From the NCBI RefSeq assembly GCF_049589555.1, contig NZ_JBAWAZ010000013.1, forward strand, positions 187-64,186: DNA of 64,000 nt, in the 5' to 3' direction. Source of the DNA: Trichococcus sp. (GTDB lineage: Bacteria > Bacillota > Bacilli > Lactobacillales > Aerococcaceae). The notes under the pieces were generated by a model, which worked only from the letters and a program-made list of their open reading frames with translations, ran no database searches and had not been told where the DNA came from. Below are positions 4,432 through 64,000 of the stretch, in pieces; within the stretch, counting starts at the first letter, position 1; every line of letters begins with the position of its first letter. Position numbers and translations under genes: made by a program.

Positions 4432-5808
4432 ATGGCTAATCGTTTTGCAATCATACTTGCTGCTGGTCAAGGAACGCGCATGAAAAGTAAGCTTTATAAA
4501 GTACTGCATGCAGTTTGCGGAAAACCAATGGTAGAGCACGTCGTGGATCAAGTAGAGGCTGCTGGCATTGAAAAGGTAGTGACAATTGTAGGGCACGGTG
4601 CGGATACTGTTAAAGGATGCTTGGGGGATCGTTCGGAATATGTATTGCAGGCGCAACAATTGGGAACAGGGCACGCTGTCCTGCAAGCGCAAGCTGTGCT
4701 GGAGAACGAAGAGGGCACTACGTTGGTCATCTGCGGAGATACACCGCTCCTGACTGCAGAGACGTTGGAATCCTTATTGCAATACCATGAAGAGAAAAAA
4801 GCGAAAGCAACTATCCTGACTGCGCATGCTGCTGATCCGAACGGCTATGGCCGCATCATCAGAAATGCGTCAGATAACGTAGAAAAAATTGTGGAACAAA
4901 AAGACGCTTCTCCGGAAGAAGTGCTTGTGCAGGAAATCAATACCGGAACGTATGCGTTCGATAACAAGTTTTTGTTTGCCGCGCTGCAATCAGTAGGCAA
5001 CAACAATGCGCAGGGCGAGTATTACCTGCCGGATGTCATCGAAATCCTGAAGAACCAAGGCGAAATCGTGACAGCTTACCAGATGAGCGACATGGGCGAA
5101 GCTTTGGGCGTGAACGATCGTGTGGCGTTGGCTGAAGCCTCCGTCTACATGAAGAGACGCATCAATGAAAAACATATGCGCAATGGCGTTACTTTGATCG
5201 ACCCGGATAATACCTATATCGAGGCGGATGTGATCATCGGAAGTGACACAGTCATTGAACCGAACGTATTCCTGAAAGGGAAAACAGTCATCGGGGAAGA
5301 TTGTTTCATCGGATCAGGCTCAGAACTGAGCAACACAACGATCGGTGACCGTGTCCAAATCAGAAGTTCAAATCTGGAGGACTCCGTGATGGAATCGGAC
5401 AGCAACATCGGTCCGTTCAGCCACTTGAGACCGAACAGCCACATCGGAAAACGCGTCCACATCGGAAATTTTGTGGAAGTGAAGAATGCGGTATTGAACG
5501 AAGACACAAAAGTCGGACATCTGACTTATGTGGGAGACGCGGATCTCGGTAAAAATATCAACGTCGGTTGCGGCACTGTCTTCGTGAATTATGACGGCAA
5601 GCACAAACACCGTTCCAGCATCGGTGACAATACATTCATCGGTTGCAACGTGAACATTGTGGCGCCTGTCAACGTCGAGGCCAACACATTCCTAGCTGCA
5701 GGTTCGACCATCACAAAAGATGTGCCTGAAGGCGCGATGGGCATCGCCCGCAGCCGCCAGGAGAACAAACCAGGCTATTGGGAAAAATTGCCGCCAGCTA
5801 AAAAATAA
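4432..5808 (+). CDS. glmU: Bifunctional UDP-N-acetylglucosamine pyrophosphorylase / glucosamine-1-phosphate N-acetyltransferase
   Basis: [11 protein letters not shown] nucleotidyltransferase motif; C-terminal hexapeptide-repeat (left-handed beta-helix) region; ATG 4432 lies 7 nt after AGGAG. Confidence 0.95.
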
Positions 5809-5905
5809 AAGCAAAACCTTATACATGTATGGTAGAATGATTTTGAAAATACAATATCAGTATGTGTTTAATTTGGTAAAAACAAAAGATTAACGGAGGA
5901 TTATC

Positions 5906-6886
5906 ATGACAGAACATTACAAAGATCCAAAACTTAAGATTTTTTCCTTAAGTTCAAATCGCCCTTTGGCTGAGAAAATTGCGGCTGACGTTGGTGTCGA
6001 GTTAGGAACCCTTTCTTCATCCCAATTCAGCGATGGTGAAATCAAAATCAACATCGACGAAAGTATCCGCGGTTGCCACGTTTACGTCATCCAATCGACA
6101 AGCTCTCCGGTAAACGACCACTTGATGGAACTTTTGATCATGATCGATGCTTTGAAGCGCGCAAGTGCCAAAACAATCAACATCGTGTTGCCTTATTATG
6201 GCTATGCACGCCAAGACCGCAAAGCGCAATCACGTGAACCGATCACAGCGAAATTGGTGGCGAACATGATCACCAATGCTGGCGCTGACAGATTGTTGAC
6301 ACTTGATATGCATGCTCCTCAAATCCAAGGTTTCTTCGATATCCCGGTTGATCATTTGTTGGGAGCTCCGTTGTTGGCAAGCTACTTCTTGGATCATGAA
6401 GTCTTGCATGATGACGTAGTCGTTGTTTCGCCTGATCACGGTGGCGTGACAAGAGCCCGCAAACTGGCTGAATTCATCAAAGCGCCGATTGCCATCATCG
6501 ACAAGAGAAGACCGAAAGCGAATGTTGCTGAAGTCATGAACATCATCGGTAATGTCGAAGGCAAAAAATGTATCCTGATCGACGACATGATCGATACTGC
6601 CGGAACAATCACATTGGCTGCCCAAGCACTGCAGGATGCAGGCGCGTTGGATGTCTATGCTTGCTGCACACATGCTGTATTGTCAGGTCCAGCCATAGAC
6701 CGCATCAACAATTCCGTAATCAAAGAATTGATCGTTACTGATTCGATCAATATCCCTGCTGACAAAGTCAGCGATAAGATCGTACTGGTTTCCGTGTCAC
6801 AATTGATCGCTGAAGCAATCAAACGTATCCACGAAAACCGCTCAGTAAGCCCGTTGTTCCAAGAAAAATTCGTAATCATCGACTAA
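5906..6886 (+). CDS. prs: Ribose-phosphate pyrophosphokinase
   Basis: Full-length PRPP synthetase: YARQDRK, DMHA, PRPP loop [13 protein letters not shown]; glmU-prs synteny as in Bacillus. Confidence 0.96.
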
Positions 6887-57658: not shown

Positions 57659-58072
57659 ATGGACTTGAGAGAGATAAGCAGGTTGCTATATCAGATCAAA
57701 CTCACAAATCAGGAAATCAATACGCTGTTCGAAAAAGAAACGGGCTTCAGTTTGACGCGGTATGAAATGCTGATGTTCCTGAAAGATAAGGGGACATGCT
57801 CCCAAAAGCAGATCCAGACAGAGCTGAAGATAGACAGCGCGGCAATTACGCGCCATCTGAAAATATTAGAACAAAAGGGCTATGTCATCCGGGAACGGAA
57901 TGTAGAGAACAACAGAGAGGTCTTTGTTCAATTATCAGAGCAGGCGATCCAAGATTTGGCTGCCTGCGGAAAAGAACATGAGCAGGGGAAATCTTCCCTA
58001 TCGCTGTCCTTAAGCGATGGGGAAGCAGAGCAATTATCCGATTTACTGAACAAACTATACTTGAAAAGATAA
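57659..58072 (+). CDS. MarR-family transcriptional regulator
   Basis: 137 aa winged-helix pattern (LTRYEMLMFLKDKGTCSQKQIQTELKIDSAAITRHLKILEQKGYV). Confidence 0.88.
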   Translation: MDLREISRLLYQIKLTNQEINTLFEKETGFSLTRYEMLMFLKDKGTCSQKQIQTELKIDSAAITRHLKILEQKGYVIRERNVENNREVFVQLSEQAIQDLAACGKEHEQGKSSLSLSLSDGEAEQLSDLLNKLYLKR

Positions 58073-58091
58073 AAAGAAAGAGGCTGCAAAC

Positions 58092-58730
58092 ATGACCACT
58101 AAACTTATCAACAACGATTTTTCGGATATCGCATTCGGAAGAAAATCGATCCGTCTCTATGATGAAAATTTTAAAATCAGTCAGGAAGAAATGCTGGAAA
58201 TGATCCAGGAAGCCACAACCACACCATCATCCGTAAACATGCAACCTTGGCGTTTTGTGGTTGTCGAGAGCGAGGAAGCAAAAGCCAAATTGAAACCGCT
58301 GATCCGTTTCAACACAAGACAAAATGACACTTCGTCAGCGATGGTGCTGATATTCGGCGATATGCAATGCTACGAGTATGGGGAAGAAATTTATAATGCA
58401 GCTGTCGAACAAGGGAAAATGTCAGCGGAGGTCAGAGACCAACAATTGGCTGCCATCATTCCTTACTACAAGAACTTTTCAAAAGAAAAAATGAATGATG
58501 TCGTAAAAATCGATTCCAGTTTGGCAGCGATGCAATTCATGCTTGTGGCCCGCGCCCATGGCTATGATACAAATCCCATCGGCGGCTTTGAAGCGGATCA
58601 GTTGGCGGAAGCAGTCGATTTGGACAAAGAAAGATATGTGCCGGTCATGATCCTGTCAATCGGCAAGGCAATGGAAGAAGGCTACGAATCCGTAAGATTT
58701 GCACCAGAAAAAATCACTAATTTTAAGTAG
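58092..58730 (+). CDS. Nitroreductase-family NAD(P)H:FMN oxidoreductase
   Basis: RKSIRLYD...PSSVNMQPWRF motifs typical of the nitroreductase fold. Confidence 0.88.
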   Translation: MTTKLINNDFSDIAFGRKSIRLYDENFKISQEEMLEMIQEATTTPSSVNMQPWRFVVVESEEAKAKLKPLIRFNTRQNDTSSAMVLIFGDMQCYEYGEEIYNAAVEQGKMSAEVRDQQLAAIIPYYKNFSKEKMNDVVKIDSSLAAMQFMLVARAHGYDTNPIGGFEADQLAEAVDLDKERYVPVMILSIGKAMEEGYESVRFAPEKITNFK

Positions 58731-58738
58731 GTGGAGAA

Positions 58739-59026
58739 ATGATAGTAATCAATGCAGAATTCTATATTATACCCGAGCAAAAACAAAAATTCTTAAATGA
58801 AATTTCAGAACTAATTAAGGAATCTAGGAAAGAAGAAGGCTGCCTATCTTATCAACTTTACCAAGCTATTACAGATGAAAATAGTTTTGTAATGGTTGAA
58901 AAATGGGAAAACCCACAAGCGATTGAGTTACATAATAAAATGTCTCACTTACAAAATTTCGCTGAGAAAGTTCCTAATTATAGTCGCAAGGCGCCTCAAA
59001 TTACGGTTAGTCTTGTAAAAGAGTAA
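58739..59026 (+). CDS. Antibiotic-biosynthesis-monooxygenase (ABM/YgiN-like) domain protein
   Basis: 95-aa ferredoxin-like fold pattern ...EEGCLSYQLYQ...FVMVEKWENPQAIELH. Confidence 0.8.
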   Translation: MIVINAEFYIIPEQKQKFLNEISELIKESRKEEGCLSYQLYQAITDENSFVMVEKWENPQAIELHNKMSHLQNFAEKVPNYSRKAPQITVSLVKE

Positions 59027-59110
59027 TCAAAATCTTCTCAATACCCGAATTCCAAAAGATGCTTGATAAAATTGCATTCTTTGGAAATAAGTATACTCAG
59101 CTTTAGCCCA

Positions 59111-59145
59111 AAAGACCTCATTTCCTGAAAGAGTGAGGTCTTTTT
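59111..59145 (+). terminator. Rho-independent terminator (member 3 of the paralogous hairpin family)
   Basis: AAAGACCTCA-tttcctgaaagag-TGAGGTCTTT followed by TTTTT. Confidence 0.8.
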
Positions 59146-59548
59146 GATATATAGATTTTGCCTTTGGAGATGAAAAAGCATCCCTGGGAAGCAGCTTCTC
59201 ATTATTTCAAACTTATGCAGAACAGACTTCAATGCTAAACGATAAATTGATTGAGTGGCAGAAAATACTGATTGAAAAATATGCGATTGACATGGATACA
59301 AGCAGGCACAAAAAGCAGGGGATTGAGGGTGTTGTTGCCAATATTACAGGGGTGATCAATGAGGACTGACGGTATACTAAATGGGAGGAAAGTTAAACAA
59401 TTAAGATCAAACATCGACTCAATCCAGTTAAGCTTGAGCAAGCGTTTCACGAAACAAACATTTATCAAAATGATCTTCAACTTTTAATTAAAAATGGATA
59501 AACATATTTGTGTTTACCGGAAAAGTAATGGCTATGCTTCTTAAGACA

Positions 59549-59591
59549 GAAAAAAAACGAGACTATCTCTTGGAAAAAGAGATAGTCCCGT
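59549..59591 (-). terminator. Rho-independent terminator of the rgg-apbE-FMN reductase operon
   Basis: GACTATCTCT-tggaaaa-AGAGATAGTC stem. The plus-strand A8 on the left becomes a T-run on the minus strand, ~50 nt after the stop at 59639. Confidence 0.85.
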
Positions 59592-59638
59592 CTTGTGCTG
59601 TTATGCGGAAAATATTTGTTAAGGCCTCTGTAACGAAT

Positions 59639-60835
59639 TTATGCTTTAACCGATGCACCTGTACCAGCATCCACATCATTGCTGTAGTTGTCTTTGACGG
59701 AGGCGCTGGAAACGGCATCGACATCGCCCTCGAGTTTTTGGCCGGTTTGGGCCAGATACCAGTCGATGATCGGTTTGAAGTCCAGGATGTATTCGTTGAC
59801 GCCGGCATAGTTGCCATCTTTATCATGTAGCGCTTGATAATTATGCACGACATATTTGTCCGGACCATGAGTCGGAACGTTGACGCGGAAGGCGTCCATT
59901 GTGCCGGAACGCAATTGTTGGAGTACCCATTCCACGCCTTTGTGGACTCTTTCCGGGTGACATTTGGAGAGCGGATTGCCGACTTGGCCGGGCACGCGCG
60001 CAGCGAGCATTTCTTCTGCCGGTTTCGTATGGTTATAGTAGAGAAATTGGTTGTTGCTGTCTGCATAAGTCAATTCCATCGGCATCGAAGCCAGGAAGTA
60101 ATTCAGCTGATCAACGGTCAACAAGCCGCGTTCGAGTTTGACGTAGGTATTGCCTTCCACAGCGCCCACAAGCTCAGCGGCTTGTTCCAGCCAGTCGTCG
60201 GCTTCCTTATCGACGCCTTCAATCGTTGTTGCAATTTTTCCGATAGCGTACAGGTCTTCCGGTTCGAGCACCGGTTTTTTCGGTCCTTCAACAGCAGAGA
60301 CCAACGTGATGAACTGGGTGAATTTTTCCAGACAGCTGCCCAGAAAATCGACGGTGCGTTTGTCTTTCAGATTTTCCTGTTCATCGAATGCTTCTTTGAC
60401 CTTGCCCAGCAAAAATTCATTGCCTGGAAGGACGATGGCATTGACGCCGGGTGCATCTAGAATTTGGCGCAGGTGCAGTTGGGCACGGGAAGAGCCTTGA
60501 TCATAGTAGGAAGCTCCCACGATCATGACCGGTTTGTTTTCCAATGGATGGATTTTGAAGGACAACCATTCCAGCACACTCTTTAAGCTTGCAGGGATCG
60601 TGTGGTTGTGTTCAGGCGTGGCGATGATGACGCCATCCGCCTGCAGGATTTTTTGGCTCAACTTTTGCACAGCAGCGCTGTTCGTTTGGTCATCACTCTG
60701 ATTGAACAAAGGGATGTCCTTGATTTCCAAAATCTCCAGGTCGAACAAGTGGCTGAATTGCTTTTTGATGTATTTCAACAAGATGCGGTTATATGATACT
60801 TCCGCGTTGGAACCTACAATACCGACTAATTTCAT
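59639..60835 (-). CDS. Fusion protein: NAD(P)H-dependent FMN reductase (flavodoxin-like) domain + DUF438/PAS-like module + C-terminal double flavinylation-type motif
   Basis: N-terminus [17 protein letters not shown]...[14 protein letters not shown] (FMN_red family). The C-terminal half has [18 protein letters not shown]...SKCHPE...[15 protein letters not shown], resembling DUF438/PAS_10 as I recall it. Tail is [28 protein letters not shown]. Confidence 0.8.
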
Positions 60836-60853
60836 AATGTTTGTCTCCGATCT

Positions 60854-61462
60854 CTAGTTACTTTCCCAAGAAAAGTTTTCAGCTGCTTTTACGTGTGCGG
60901 CGTGGGTGTGCGATAGTTGTTTCATGATGTTGATAAACATTAGGAAGTCCTCGAACAAGCCTTCCAGCTCTTGGACCTGATCCGGATTCTTCAGATTGTT
61001 GTCTGCGTCGAAAGCCTGCAAAGAATGGCTGAGCAGGAACTCAGAACTTGGCATGATGCGGGCTTTCAATTCCGGCGCATCCAAAATTTGACGCAAATGC
61101 GCTTGCGCACGTGAGGAACCCAGTACGCCATAGGAAGCCCCTGTGATCATGACAGGCTTGTCGACGAAGGGGTAGATGCCGTAGGACAACCAACTCAAGG
61201 CGCTCATCAGGGAAGCGGGGACTGCGTGATCGTATTCTGGTGTGCTGATGATGACGCCGTCAGCTACTTCGATCTTTTCCGCCAAGGCTTTCGCCTCAGC
61301 CGGGATCTGCATGTCTGCCGGTTTGTCGAAGATAGGCAGGTCCTTGATTTCGACGATTTCGATGTCTGCCTTATCCGAAAAATGCTTTTGGATGTATTGC
61401 AGCAGCATACGGTTAGTGGAGTGGTCCGAGTTTGTGCCGACGAGGCCGATTAATTTATTCAT
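60854..61462 (-). CDS. NAD(P)H-dependent FMN reductase family protein (flavodoxin-like)
   Basis: MNKLIGLVGTNSDHSTNR...STPEYDHAVPASLMSAL; paralog of the N-terminal domain of the downstream gene. ATG 61462 after GGAAGGAAG. Confidence 0.85.
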   Translation of the reverse strand: MNKLIGLVGTNSDHSTNRMLLQYIQKHFSDKADIEIVEIKDLPIFDKPADMQIPAEAKALAEKIEVADGVIISTPEYDHAVPASLMSALSWLSYGIYPFVDKPVMITGASYGVLGSSRAQAHLRQILDAPELKARIMPSSEFLLSHSLQAFDADNNLKNPDQVQELEGLFEDFLMFINIMKQLSHTHAAHVKAAENFSWESN

Positions 61463-61515
61463 GTGAATACTTCCTTCCAAATATTAGTTTTTTTATGATT
61501 CATTTAAACACGTGA

Positions 61516-62460
61516 TTAGGCGGGGTGTTTGCGTTGCAGCCGGTTTTCCAAGCCTTTTGAGCAGATGAGGCTGCCGTCTTTCATGATCAGGATTCCGTCG
61601 ATTGCTTCCGATCGGTCCAATGTGGCGAGGATCACGTCGGCAGGTTGGCCGAATAAGCGGGTCGTCCAGATTTCCCCATCGACAGAGTCATCGGCAACCA
61701 CGGTCAGGCTGATGACATCCGTTTCTGCCGGATAGCCGGTTTGTGGGTCCAGAATATGGTGATAGTGCTTGCCTTGGGCTTCCAGCTGCCTCTCATATAC
61801 ACCGGAGGTAACCGCTGATTGGTTCTGGATCTTCAATACCGCGCTAAAATGCTCGCGGGGGAGCAGTGGGTTTTGGATGCCGATGCGCCAATAGGGATCT
61901 TCATGATTCTGGGATGGTCCGAACACGACGACATTTCCGCCCAAATTGATGAGAGCGGAAGCTACGCCGGCTTCCTTGAAGTATGCCGTCAGTAGATCGG
62001 CGATATAGCCTTTTGCCACGGCCCCCAAGTCGATCGCCATGCCTTCTTGCTGAAGGAAAACGGTCTGATCCTTCTCGGACAAGAGGATTTTGTTGGAATC
62101 GGTGATTTCAAGAAGCCTCTGAATCTCTTCAGCATTCGGGACTTTTGCATCACCGAAACCGATCCGCCAAGTCTGCACCAACGGTCCAATCGCGATATTC
62201 AGATGACTGCCAGGAGCTAAGCTATGGTATTTCCCCACCTTGATCAAGTGAAATAAATCAGGATGGACGGCGAGAGGGGCTTTCCCTGCCAACTGATTGA
62301 TTTGCATCAGCTCCGATGTTGGATCATTGGCGCTGAAACGCTGTTCGTATGTTTTCAGGCGTTGGATCGCCTCCTCCAAAATAGCATCAGGGTGCGTGTG
62401 CGTCACAAGTAGATCGATGATCGTTCCCATCAGACGGACCGTTGCCTTCTTTTGTTCCAT
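61516..62460 (-). CDS. apbE: FAD:protein FMN transferase (ApbE/Ftp family), no signal peptide or lipobox
   Basis: MGTIIDL, AIDLGAVAKGY, LGGNV, TSGVYER, HHILDPQTGYP motifs. Start at ATG 62460 (MEQKKATVRLMGT); the N-terminus is hydrophilic. Confidence 0.88.
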   Translation of the reverse strand: MEQKKATVRLMGTIIDLLVTHTHPDAILEEAIQRLKTYEQRFSANDPTSELMQINQLAGKAPLAVHPDLFHLIKVGKYHSLAPGSHLNIAIGPLVQTWRIGFGDAKVPNAEEIQRLLEITDSNKILLSEKDQTVFLQQEGMAIDLGAVAKGYIADLLTAYFKEAGVASALINLGGNVVVFGPSQNHEDPYWRIGIQNPLLPREHFSAVLKIQNQSAVTSGVYERQLEAQGKHYHHILDPQTGYPAETDVISLTVVADDSVDGEIWTTRLFGQPADVILATLDRSEAIDGILIMKDGSLICSKGLENRLQRKHPA

Positions 62461-62488
62461 TTTTTCCACCACCTTCAGGATAAACGTG

Positions 62489-63367
62489 TCATTCTTTTGC
62501 GGGATTCCCTGAAAGGATCTCACTTTCTAACTGCGCCAATTCTTTCAGCGCAATCGTGTTTTTGTTGATTTTTGAATAGGCTCTGGCATCGTAGATCAAT
62601 TCCAGCACTTCTTGCTGCGGCTTCTCCTGGAGGATGGCATTTTTGGCCAACTGGATGGCTGCACGGGCAAGGTAGTAGGTCACATGATTGTCTGAACAAA
62701 TGGAAACAGCATAGGAAAGCAGTGCATTGCTCAGTTCAATCTCATTGATGAGGGAATAGAAGGTACCGCTTTGGAAAACAATATTCAGTACACGCCAGAC
62801 ATCCTCCATCGTCTTGATCGGATAAGCATAAATTTTTTCCAGGACCTTACTGAAATAAAACTCTGCCTTTTCCAGTTTTTTTTCACGGCTGTAGACCATG
62901 CCGATACCGGTATAAGCCAGCAGGCGATAGATTTCCACATCGTTCCCATCGTCAGCCAGTAAGATTTGATCGAAGGTGAACAATACATCCGTCACTGAAA
63001 CCTGCTGCGCAATCATGATGAAACCGTTCAAATAATGGAAGCGTAGGGCCAGGCTGTTTTCTTCGATTTCACTCACGGTAATGCTCTGCAGCAGGTCCGA
63101 GGCCTGGTCGTATTCACTTGTGATCAGAAAGAATTCTGCTTCGTTCATTTTTTCTGTCGCTTCTGTATACTTGACGCCTACTTTAGGGAACAGTTCTCCC
63201 AAGGGTAGATTTAGTCTGTTGCACAGTTTGATCAGGATCTTCAGGTTCGGGACTTGCCCGTTGTTCTCGAAGCGGCTCAAAGTAGCTTGGGTACAGATAC
63301 CCTCTGCCAGGTCCATCTGAGAGAGGTTCAACGCTTTGCGGGCTTCAATAAATCGTTCGATGTTCAT
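62489..63367 (-). CDS. rgg: Rgg/GadR/MutR-family transcriptional regulator (XRE HTH + TPR-like peptide-binding domain)
   Basis: MNIERFIEARKALNLSQMDLAEGICTQATLSRFENNGQVPNLKILIKLCNRLN HTH plus a ~220-aa helical C-domain. ATG 63367 after GGGAGGAAAAA; the track ORF is over-extended to 63613. Confidence 0.85.
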   Translation of the reverse strand: MNIERFIEARKALNLSQMDLAEGICTQATLSRFENNGQVPNLKILIKLCNRLNLPLGELFPKVGVKYTEATEKMNEAEFFLITSEYDQASDLLQSITVSEIEENSLALRFHYLNGFIMIAQQVSVTDVLFTFDQILLADDGNDVEIYRLLAYTGIGMVYSREKKLEKAEFYFSKVLEKIYAYPIKTMEDVWRVLNIVFQSGTFYSLINEIELSNALLSYAVSICSDNHVTYYLARAAIQLAKNAILQEKPQQEVLELIYDARAYSKINKNTIALKELAQLESEILSGNPAKE

Positions 63368-63398: not shown

Positions 63399-63455
63399 AT
63401 GACAGCAACGAAGATTCGAATCGATATTGTGTTTTGTTTCACATTACTTATGTAA
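63399..63455 (+). CDS. Candidate SHP-like short hydrophobic peptide (18 aa), divergent from rgg
   Basis: Hand translation MTATKIRIDIVFCFTLLM: basic N-terminus, Asp, hydrophobic C-terminus. Weak RBS (AAAGTGG). Speculative. Confidence 0.2.
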   Translation: MTATKIRIDIVFCFTLLM

Positions 63456-63458
63456 GTG

Positions 63459-63487
63459 ATTATACGCTTACTGAATATAAGGGTCAA
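63459..63487 (-). promoter_or_regulatory. Consensus sigmaA-type promoter of rgg (minus strand)
   Basis: Minus-strand TTGACC (63487-63482), 17-nt spacer, TATAAT (63464-63459). Confidence 0.7.
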
Positions 63488-63526
63488 TAGAATATATAAA
63501 AAATTATATAAAACGAGGGTTGGAAG

Positions 63527-64000
63527 ATGACTGAACCTATTTTGAAGGATCCACGCGAGTTGTATCACACTGGAAAATTTGCAGATCAGGATCAAGACAC
63601 CCCTGCTTTGCAAGATAAGATGCTACCGAAACCCGATTGCGGGGAGGAAAGCTACGTAGGTAACCACTTGTTGGAGAATCACCGTGTATTGATCACTGGT
63701 GGCGATTCCGGAATCGGACGGACAGCTGCGATAGCCTTGCGGACCAACAGCGCCGCGGTAAAAACTGCCGGCATTTCCGCGACCGTTACCCAAATGTTGG
63801 GCATCAGCGAACCGGCGCTGTTCGGGGTCGTGATGCGCACTGGTATGAAGGCGATCGGCGTGATGTTGGCGAGTTCCGCTCTGGGAGGCATGGCCCTTTC
63901 GCTGCTAGGGATACAGGCGAACAGTTACGGATTGGCGGTGTTGTTGTCGCCACTGATGTATATCTACGATCCGTACCAATTGACGATGTATGTGGTGATC
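63527..64000 (+). pseudogene. In-frame chimera: first ~70 codons of a YghA/YdaD-type short-chain dehydrogenase joined to the C-terminal part of a PTS EIIC (Bgl/Scr/Tre class); open at the window end
   Basis: Residues 1-70 MTEPILKDPRELYHTGKF...PDCGEESYVG...VLITGGDSGIGRTAAIA form an SDR N-terminus. From ~63737 the sequence is ...AGISATVTQMLGISEPALFGV...GGMALSLLG (EIIC GITEPAIFGV-type motif). No stop before 64000. Confidence 0.5.

Follow-up and report, generated by a model that had tools for sequence, protein, structure and literature searches.

A stretch of 64,000 nucleotides (nt) of a Trichococcus sp. genome (assembly GCF_049589555.1, contig NZ_JBAWAZ010000013.1, positions 187 to 64,186), referred to here as the window, contains a four-gene operon whose products probably constitute a self-contained cytoplasmic flavoprotein module. 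In this module, a fusion protein flavinylated by the co-encoded ApbE would form a heteromer with its own paralogue, and the genes would be expressed from one promoter regulated at two sites. Covalent flavinylation of a tail of this kind is already published, and the locus adds a Trichococcus member to the class concerned. The four genes, which a preliminary description of this DNA had reported as co-directional, are indeed found on the minus strand:

62489-63367, minus strand, gene 1, regulator with a helix-turn-helix (HTH) and tetratricopeptide repeats (TPR), open reading frame (ORF) of 292 amino acids (aa)
61516-62460, minus strand, gene 2, apbE, ORF of 314 aa
60854-61462, minus strand, gene 3, tail-less FMN_red protein, ORF of 202 aa
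59639-60835, minus strand, gene 4, FMN_red-PAS_10 fusion protein, ORF of 398 aa

A scan of one genome per species revealed at least 479 matching loci. The counts out of 80 given below come from the best of these loci, distributed among Carnobacteriaceae, Enterococcaceae, Vagococcus, Aerococcaceae, Streptococcus, Gemella, Lactobacillaceae, and Bacillaceae. The nearest relatives of the window locus are those of Trichococcus species, in which the fusion protein is 96-99% identical.

The product of apbE matches the Pfam family ApbE (PF02424) with E = 9.2e-76 over profile positions 1-259 of 266, the match beginning at residue 11, and its closest solved relative is Listeria FmnB (7esa, 6.6e-68). Ser257, His273, and Arg262 of FmnB are conserved in the window enzyme, and Asp301 of FmnB aligns with Glu. 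In the active site of ApbE enzymes, Ser, His (the general base), and Asp act as a triad, to which Arg is added in enzymes of FmnB type (PMC12052999). Enzymes of the family move FMN from FAD to a Ser/Thr of their client in an Mg2+-dependent reaction. FmnB and PplA function outside the cytosol (PMC9973259). The N-terminus of the window enzyme is MEQKKATVRLMGT, and no signal peptide or lipobox is present with any possible start. Upstream of the ATG, the frame remains open for just 22 codons, which are hydrophilic and contain neither a hydrophobic stretch nor a lipobox, and an alternative start with a signal peptide was rejected on this ground. The same state is kept in 60 of the 61 operon-linked ApbE homologues, each taken at its longest possible ORF, the sole exception being an over-extended ORF. 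Likewise, none of the four proteins contains a transmembrane-like segment or a lipobox (the maximum of the 19-residue Kyte-Doolittle window is ≤ 1.37). The claim that ApbE and its neighbours lack export signals and membrane segments is thus confirmed. The window ApbE, being FmnB-like and devoid of a signal, can therefore be described as an FmnB-type transferase minus its export signal. Its predicted activity, that of a cytoplasmic transferase moving flavin mononucleotide (FMN) from flavin adenine dinucleotide (FAD) to protein, is well supported.

The predicted target of this enzyme is the fusion protein, which is composed of the following parts:

60281-60835, minus strand, FMN_red domain, aa 1-185 (Pfam FMN_red, 2e-38)
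60107-60280, minus strand, conserved linker or N-terminal cap, aa 186-243 (EDL...TTI...W-x-E-x-AA...G-x-x-Y-V-x-L)
59777-60106, minus strand, PAS_10 domain, aa 244-353 (Pfam PAS_10, PF13596, 5.5e-27)
59642-59731, minus strand, disordered C-terminal tail with two flavinylation motifs, aa 369-398
59699-59719, minus strand, motif 1, DAVSSAS, aa 373-379, predicted FMN-phosphoester site Ser379
59651-59671, minus strand, motif 2, DAGTGAS, aa 389-395, predicted FMN-phosphoester site Ser395

Both motifs, the presence of which at the end of the last gene had been pointed out in the preliminary description, are of the D-x-x-[ST]-[GS]-A-S type (motif as defined in PMC12052999) and lie inside the last 26 residues. 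They are not a matter of chance, because they are kept in the homologues: 115 of the 120 closest ones (72-96% identity) contain one to four motifs D-x-x-[ST]-[GSA]-[AS]-[ST] past residue 350, with spacers that vary freely, and the tail motifs are present in 76 of the 80 loci. The four exceptions comprise two loci that end with their contigs and two with Ala in position 4 of the motif. In the AlphaFold2 (AF2) model of the fusion protein, the mean predicted local distance difference test score (pLDDT) is 81.5 and exceeds 90 in the PAS part, while residues 371-398 are disordered (about 35).

The assignments of the FMN_red, ApbE, and PAS-like domains made previously agree with the Pfam matches, in contrast to the DUF438 label, as the Pfam search of the fusion protein gave no match to DUF438 (PF04282) even at E ≤ 1. 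The FMN_red domain aligns in full length with Escherichia coli YieF/ChrR (3svl, 3e-24), and its Foldseek matches are ChrR, ArsH, YhdA, and SsuE (target-normalised TM-scores approximately 0.63-0.86). The linker always accompanies tailed PAS_10 domains, including those of the stand-alone and secreted proteins described below. It contains columns that are invariant in both of our alignments (A1 and A2), and its pLDDT is 91-96. The PAS_10 domain is similar to 2qkp in sequence (5.7e-22) and in predicted structure (Foldseek 1.3e-12, target-normalised TM-score 0.87, root-mean-square deviation 2.1 Å). Its residues H293 and P294 are invariant in both alignments, and C292 is invariant in A1 but replaced by Val in Lactococcus and some other members. 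The motif N-P-L-x-x-C-H-P (59957-59965), to which these residues belong, is shared with tail-less PAS_10 proteins (2qkp and a protein of Alkalibacterium), and its Cys-His-Pro part is a candidate ligand or metal contact. Literature searches on SMU_1151c/2QKP, 3CAX/PF0695, and the annotation names found no specific functional or expression data, and the PAS_10 literature found concerns hemerythrin-type proteins only.

The prediction of covalent flavinylation is based not only on the motifs. Lactococcus FMN_red proteins that are linked to apbE and have one or two C-terminal motifs are covalently flavinylated by their own ApbE, and the reaction requires the cognate ApbE and the intact Ser/Thr of the motif, since Ser/Thr-to-Ala substitutions abolish it (PMC11334425). 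An AlphaFold-multimer model of the homodimer places the tail near the flavin site of FMN_red (PMC11334425). A seven-residue motif at the terminus of a protein suffices for ApbE (PMC12052999). Neither of the two papers, Huang 2024 (PMC11334425) and Méheust 2021, mentions a PAS domain. The Lactococcus lactis operon present on plasmids pGdh442, pLLN8-1, and pUC08A consists of apbE, a gene for a 201-aa FMN_red protein without a motif, and a gene for a 403-aa protein that is 59% identical to the window fusion protein over its full length. The latter contains FMN_red and PAS_10 domains by Pfam and ends in two DATSGAS motifs; no other FMN_red protein with motifs was present in those L. lactis loci linked to apbE that we examined. 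When a homologue search was seeded with a protein of Streptococcus suis, only streptococci were present among the matches listed. The proposal that the fusion tail is flavinylated in the cytoplasm is well supported by the conserved motifs together with these experiments. The central hypothesis of the preliminary description is therefore probably right, but a characterised counterpart, which its author was unable to name, does exist, because the Lactococcus class was published in 2024 and a cytoplasmic ApbE is known from Klebsiella.

The tail-less FMN_red protein (202 aa; Pfam FMN_red, 4.5e-34) belongs to the ChrR/YieF class. Its gene lies directly 5' of the fusion gene in 79 of the 80 loci, and in the remaining one the contig ends there. 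Flavinylation motifs are absent from all 79 homologues of this partner. Both paralogues align with ChrR/YieF and retain the FMN_red phosphate loop (G-[ST]-x4-S-x-N) and the signature TPE-x-[ND]-H (in this comparison, the ChrR row was taken only in part from the 3svl alignment). The flavin sites of FMN_red enzymes are located at the dimer interface (PMC11334425). Since the gene pairing is that strict and the flavin sites are so placed, a heteromer is the simplest reading, and the gene pairing suggests that the fusion protein and its tail-less paralogue form one. As a separate observation, the partner ends (60854-60880) in a conserved ...(A/K)ENFSW(E/D) sequence that E. coli ChrR does not have; the ENFSWE end may serve for docking or cap the active site. 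The apbE gene is adjacent to this pair in 61 of the 80 loci, upstream of it in Lactobacillales and downstream in Bacillaceae. Beyond the four genes, no further conserved neighbour that could name the substrate was found in the 80 loci, and thus the neighbourhood names no electron acceptor.

The intergenic gaps, in the 5' to 3' order of the genes, are 28, 53, and 18 nt. The elements that flank and may control the genes are as follows:

63493-63510, minus strand, Box A, perfect 18-bp palindrome TATATAA-N4-TTATATA (TATATAAAAAATTATATA), 5 nt upstream of the -35 element
63459-63487, minus strand, sigma-70-type promoter TTGACC-17 nt-TATAAT, 11/12 match
63428-63443, minus strand, Box B, TGTGAAACAAAACACA, operator-like, Rex-type or Crp/Fnr-type, 16 nt downstream of the -10 element
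59554-59594, minus strand, intrinsic terminator at the end of the operon, with an 18-bp stem and then U8

The promoter is the sole promoter-like site on the minus strand 5' of the four genes, and an alignment of promoter regions shows -35 and -10 elements in the corresponding place in other genera. The alignment also brought out Box A and Box B as conserved elements. The minimum free energy of the terminator is -29 kcal/mol (z = -6.0), and none of 200 shuffled sequences folds equally well. An Rfam search of the region (E ≤ 0.1) found no riboswitch or other RNA element. In other genera, the frames of the regulator and apbE overlap (often by 4-8 nt) or abut, which argues for co-transcription, and the gap between the FMN_red gene and the fusion gene is typically 15-19 nt in related loci. 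Comparative genomics thus favours one transcript for the four genes. The promoter described earlier is near-consensus, the strong terminator is confirmed, and the single operon is supported.

The regulator comprises an N-terminal XRE-type HTH (Pfam HTH_3, 1.6e-11) and a region with a weak TPR match. Its best and sole sequence match in the Protein Data Bank is PlcR (E = 0.012). The AF2 model (pLDDT 88) is most similar in Foldseek to PlcR in the PlcR-PapR-DNA complex (3u3w, 5e-8, TM-score 0.61-0.64), followed by ComR, then Rgg2/3 (about 1e-4 to 1e-3), and also PrgX and Rap. The fold search thus identifies it as an HTH-TPR protein of the RRNPP fold, closest to PlcR. Box A, an AT-rich palindrome with a 4-nt spacer, resembles the PlcR box in geometry. 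It is unique in the window, where 0.05 occurrences are expected by chance, and is found in 17 of 21 loci headed by the regulator and in two loci with the regulator elsewhere, but in none of 52 regulator-less loci. This co-occurrence with the regulator makes Box A a likely operator of the HTH-TPR protein, at the level of a candidate.

Box B is the only exact TGTGAA-N6-CACA in the window, where it reads ATGTGAA-ACAA-AACACAA and occupies approximately positions +9 to +24 from the inferred transcription start. In 29 of 75 loci, the module is preceded by TGTGA-N6-NCACA or TGTG-N8-CACA; among them are regulator-less Bacillaceae with TTGTGAT-N4-TTCACA and Granulicatella and Streptococcus with TGTGA-N6-TCACA. 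The Bacillaceae form comes near the consensus operator of Rex, TTGTGAA-N4-TTCACAA. Box B may accommodate a Rex-like factor, and one of Crp/Fnr type would suit it as well. In the L. lactis plasmid locus, Box B is absent, despite a neighbouring Crp/Fnr gene.

We propose that the module functions as follows. The four genes would be transcribed from the one promoter, probably activated by their own RRNPP-type regulator at the palindrome abutting the -35 element and probably held in check by a redox repressor (Rex-like or Crp/Fnr-like) just 3' of the -10 element, both steps being suggested by the conservation of the motifs. The FmnB-like ApbE would then move the FMN part of FAD, as a phosphoester, onto Ser379 and/or Ser395 of the fusion protein, as shown for the Lactococcus class. 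The flavinylated fusion protein and the co-encoded tail-less paralogue would associate into a heteromer that acts as an NAD(P)H:acceptor oxidoreductase of the ChrR/YieF type. The tethered FMN would stay with the complex, where it may fill the FMN_red site(s) or swing between FMN_red and PAS_10. A sensor complex, the alternative offered in the preliminary description, is conceivable as well.

Several observations weigh against this proposal. About a quarter of the loci have no apbE within 7 kb. Motif 1 has Ser at the position of the canonical Gly, and the variation in motif copy number from one to four means that a stoichiometry of two motifs for two sites fails. The heteromer is deduced from gene pairing alone, and the 2024 paper modelled a homodimer. 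Box B in Trichococcus departs from the Rex consensus. Finally, the 403-aa L. lactis protein is only presumably WP_021723379.1 of that paper, the two being matched by description, by architecture and plasmid locus, and by the motif-less partner.

The rival explanations concern the function of ApbE, the place of the tethered flavin, and the signal that controls the operon. If the window ApbE were a cytoplasmic FAD pyrophosphatase similar to Treponema Ftp, it would merely feed FMN to the FMN_red proteins, and the motifs would be incidental low-complexity sequences. Some ApbE/Ftp family members do hydrolyse FAD instead of transferring FMN (PMC4767422). We regard this explanation as highly improbable, given that the motifs, unlike the drifting spacers, are retained in copy and sequence, that they are confined to the PAS_10-bearing subunit, that covalent, Ser/Thr-dependent flavinylation was shown for the class (PMC11334425), and that the window ApbE is closest to the transferase FmnB, with Ser, His, and Arg kept. 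A more serious rival, which we consider quite possible though not probable, is that the linker, PAS_10, and the tail together are the flavinylated unit, with FMN docking in or on PAS_10, much as LOV-type PAS domains hold flavins, and acting as a second redox centre or sensor. The FMN_red domains would then keep non-covalent FMN and pass electrons of NAD(P)H to the tethered flavin. This rival draws on the start of the tail right after the conserved C-terminal helix of PAS and on the occurrence of the unit outside FMN_red proteins. A search with residues 186-398 against 1.84 billion representatives clustered at 50% identity gave 39 that match the whole linker, PAS_10, and tail, and most of them do not have an FMN_red domain (nine do, and the rest are mostly stand-alone proteins of about 200-260 aa). 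Six of the 39 have an N-terminal signal peptide or lipobox and would be located where NAD(P)H is unavailable, and two of these six also contain FMN_bind. Pfam-based examples include P0401, a lipoprotein with FMN_bind, PAS_10, and the tail; P0392, a secreted protein with two PAS_10-tail units plus FMN_bind; and P0391, an FMN_red protein with two such units. A split form was found in locus L086 (ena:ERZ27316819:k141_110312, 4837-6735), where consecutive genes encode FMN_red proteins of 202 and 166 aa and a 244-aa protein of PAS_10 with a three-motif tail; no apbE is present within 6 kb of it. In Atopostipes, additional stand-alone copies of PAS_10 with the tail adjoin the operon, and in P0393, P0400, and P0403, which are of the fusion type, the tail is retained despite degenerate FMN_red motifs. 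On the other hand, no flavin pocket is documented for PAS_10, 2qkp and 3cax being uncharacterised structural-genomics entries, and the published AlphaFold-multimer model sets the tail near the flavin site of FMN_red (PMC11334425). The AF2 monomer leaves the tail disordered, and the spacing between the helix and the first Ser is variable (20-27 residues in streptococci, against 11-15 in most genera), so that a fixed spacing was rejected as evidence for docking.

As for control, the preliminary description had named gene 1 an Rgg protein and placed the module under quorum-type control, in which case gene 1 would be a pheromone receptor of an Rgg/SHP-type regulon and the redox module would follow cell density. 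The HTH and TPR-like RRNPP fold is indeed common to Rgg, ComR, and PlcR, the regulator heads the operon, and a PlcR-box-like palindrome lies beside the -35 element. The Rgg label was nevertheless rejected in favour of an RRNPP, PlcR-like assignment: no Rgg family model of NCBIfam matches the regulator even at E ≤ 10, there is no Pfam Rgg match, PlcR and not Rgg is the closest fold, the orthologues are named simply 'helix-turn-helix' by the Prokaryotic Genome Annotation Pipeline, and no Rgg appears among the source names of the matches listed. Quorum-type control is not borne out either, and we consider it improbable. Downstream of the regulator, apbE follows after 28 nt or overlaps, too close for a peptide gene in between, and no small ORF within 450 nt upstream of the regulator is conserved beyond the genus, which leaves such control unsupported, although a peptide might be encoded elsewhere in the genome. 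Pheromone receptors diversify with their peptides, in contrast to the regulator homologues, which are about 70% identical across genera. Moreover, the regulator is present in 24 of the 80 loci, and the module occurs without it in the remaining 56.

Of these explanations, the proposed module, in which ApbE flavinylates the fusion tail in the cytoplasm, is the most probable; what the tail belongs to can be considered separately. The stand-alone, secreted, split, and repeated forms suggest that the tether is functionally a part of the PAS_10 unit, and 28 of the 39 representatives carry one to eight flavinylation motifs. It is conceivable, though on balance rather unlikely, that the linker, PAS_10, and the tail are an unrecognised portable ApbE-substrate flavin-carrier module, like FMN_bind, in which the PAS fold holds the tethered FMN. 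On this tentative reading, the module looks like one recruited into cytoplasmic FMN_red heteromers, stand-alone cytoplasmic proteins, and secreted FMN_bind lipoproteins. The literature that we found does not appear to describe it as a portable flavin-carrying module. Two further PAS_10 proteins, P0508 and P0532, one of them with FMN_red, are rich in Ala and Pro, have very long tails with four to eight near-identical DA[ST]TGAS repeats, and are candidate multi-flavin 'string' proteins. In two species of Alkalibacterium (L014, 1926-3218, minus strand; L015, 1928-3223, minus strand), a PAS_10 protein of about 430 aa is encoded about 3 kb upstream of the module. Its N-terminal region is long and helical, its C-terminal PAS_10 has no tail, and by sequence it looks hemerythrin/DUF438-like.

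Outside the operon, a MarR - nitroreductase - ABM monooxygenase operon (57659-59026, plus strand) is convergent with the flavin module and neighbours it in Trichococcus loci only; the DNA between the two (59027-59553, about 530 nt) is apparently non-coding. On the other side, a divergent ORF (63527-64000, plus strand) runs past the end of the window and starts like a short-chain dehydrogenase/reductase (SDR) (MTEPILKDPRELYHTGKF...LITGGDSGIGR). After about residue 66 it becomes hydrophobic and no longer appears SDR-like, and it may represent a frameshift, a fusion, or a pseudogene.

The module is also carried by plasmids. The whole set of genes for the regulator, ApbE, FMN_red protein, and fusion protein is present on Enterococcus faecium plasmids (95 PLSDB records), which are about 150-380 kb in size and derive mostly from clinical isolates. 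In one of them, NZ_CP017793.1 (157766-163439, locus L082), the fusion protein is 72.7% identical to that of the window, and in strain E240 copies of IS1216 on both sides of the module form a composite-transposon-like arrangement. The L. lactis plasmid operons have no gene for the HTH-TPR regulator and adjoin a gene for a Crp/Fnr-family regulator; in pGdh442, the operon also adjoins class Ib ribonucleotide reductase genes.

The flavinylation by ApbE is usually presented as a guard against the diffusion of flavin outside the cell, and the module described here would represent the same chemistry used routinely in the cytoplasm of many Bacilli, including hosts of E. faecium megaplasmids and L. lactis plasmids. 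To the published account, our analysis adds the paired tail-less subunit, the cytoplasmic setting, the unit of PAS_10 and tail, the candidate operators, and the carriage by plasmids. If Box B is truly Rex-like, it would couple the expression of the module to the NADH/NAD+ balance. Should the portable-module reading be true, the reductase would gain a second flavin centre, bound to PAS, which would relay electrons or sense redox state.

Comparison with known systems indicates which features of the Trichococcus operon are shared and which are particular to it. In the case of the Listeria monocytogenes FmnB/PplA system, which serves flavinylation in extracellular electron transfer, FmnB shares Ser, His, and Arg with the window ApbE, but the window enzyme is signal-less, with clients located in the cytoplasm, whereas FmnB is a lipoprotein. 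The secreted lipoproteins with FMN_bind and PAS_10 (P0401 and P0392) presumably resemble PplA. Both FMN_red domains of the window align in full length with E. coli ChrR/YieF (FMN_red, PF03358; 3svl), to which NAD(P)H-dependent reductases of quinones, chromate, and azo dyes are related, and keep its motifs. Known members of the ChrR/YieF class are, to our knowledge, homo-oligomers that bind FMN non-covalently and lack a PAS domain; the window differs from them in having two diverged paralogues, the PAS_10 fusion, and the predicted covalent tether. The regulator has the XRE-type HTH and TPR-like helical repeats of PlcR and other RRNPP proteins (ComR, Rgg2/3, and PrgX), from which it differs by its identity of about 15%, by matching no family model, and by having no cognate peptide gene detected nearby. 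PAS_10 of the fusion protein is of the same family and fold as the hemerythrin/DUF438-type PAS_10 proteins (2qkp, Streptococcus mutans SMU_1151c; 3cax, PF0695; Porphyromonas gingivalis PG_0686) and has the same C-H-P motif, while those proteins have neither the flavinylation tail nor the EDL...W-x-E-x-AA linker.

Two systems are closer to that of the window as a whole. Klebsiella pneumoniae has a second, signal-less ApbE for a soluble cytoplasmic NADH:fumarate reductase, dedicated to its client as here (as summarised in PMC12052999). The Klebsiella client is described there as an FMN_bind domain in a multidomain fumarate reductase (PMC12052999), whereas the window client is a disordered tail following PAS_10 on an FMN_red protein, without a FAD_binding_2 or OYE domain. 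The closest counterpart is the Lactococcus class of L. lactis and L. taiwanensis (Huang et al. 2024, mSystems), with the same FMN_red family, the same linkage to apbE, and a C-terminal extension of one or two motifs. The paper mentions neither PAS_10, nor the tail-less partner, nor the cytoplasmic location, and models a homodimer (PMC11334425). The order of apbE, FMN_red gene, and fusion gene is the same in the L. lactis operon as in Trichococcus, but the Trichococcus operon is headed by the gene for the HTH-TPR regulator, while that of L. lactis is preceded by a Crp/Fnr gene.

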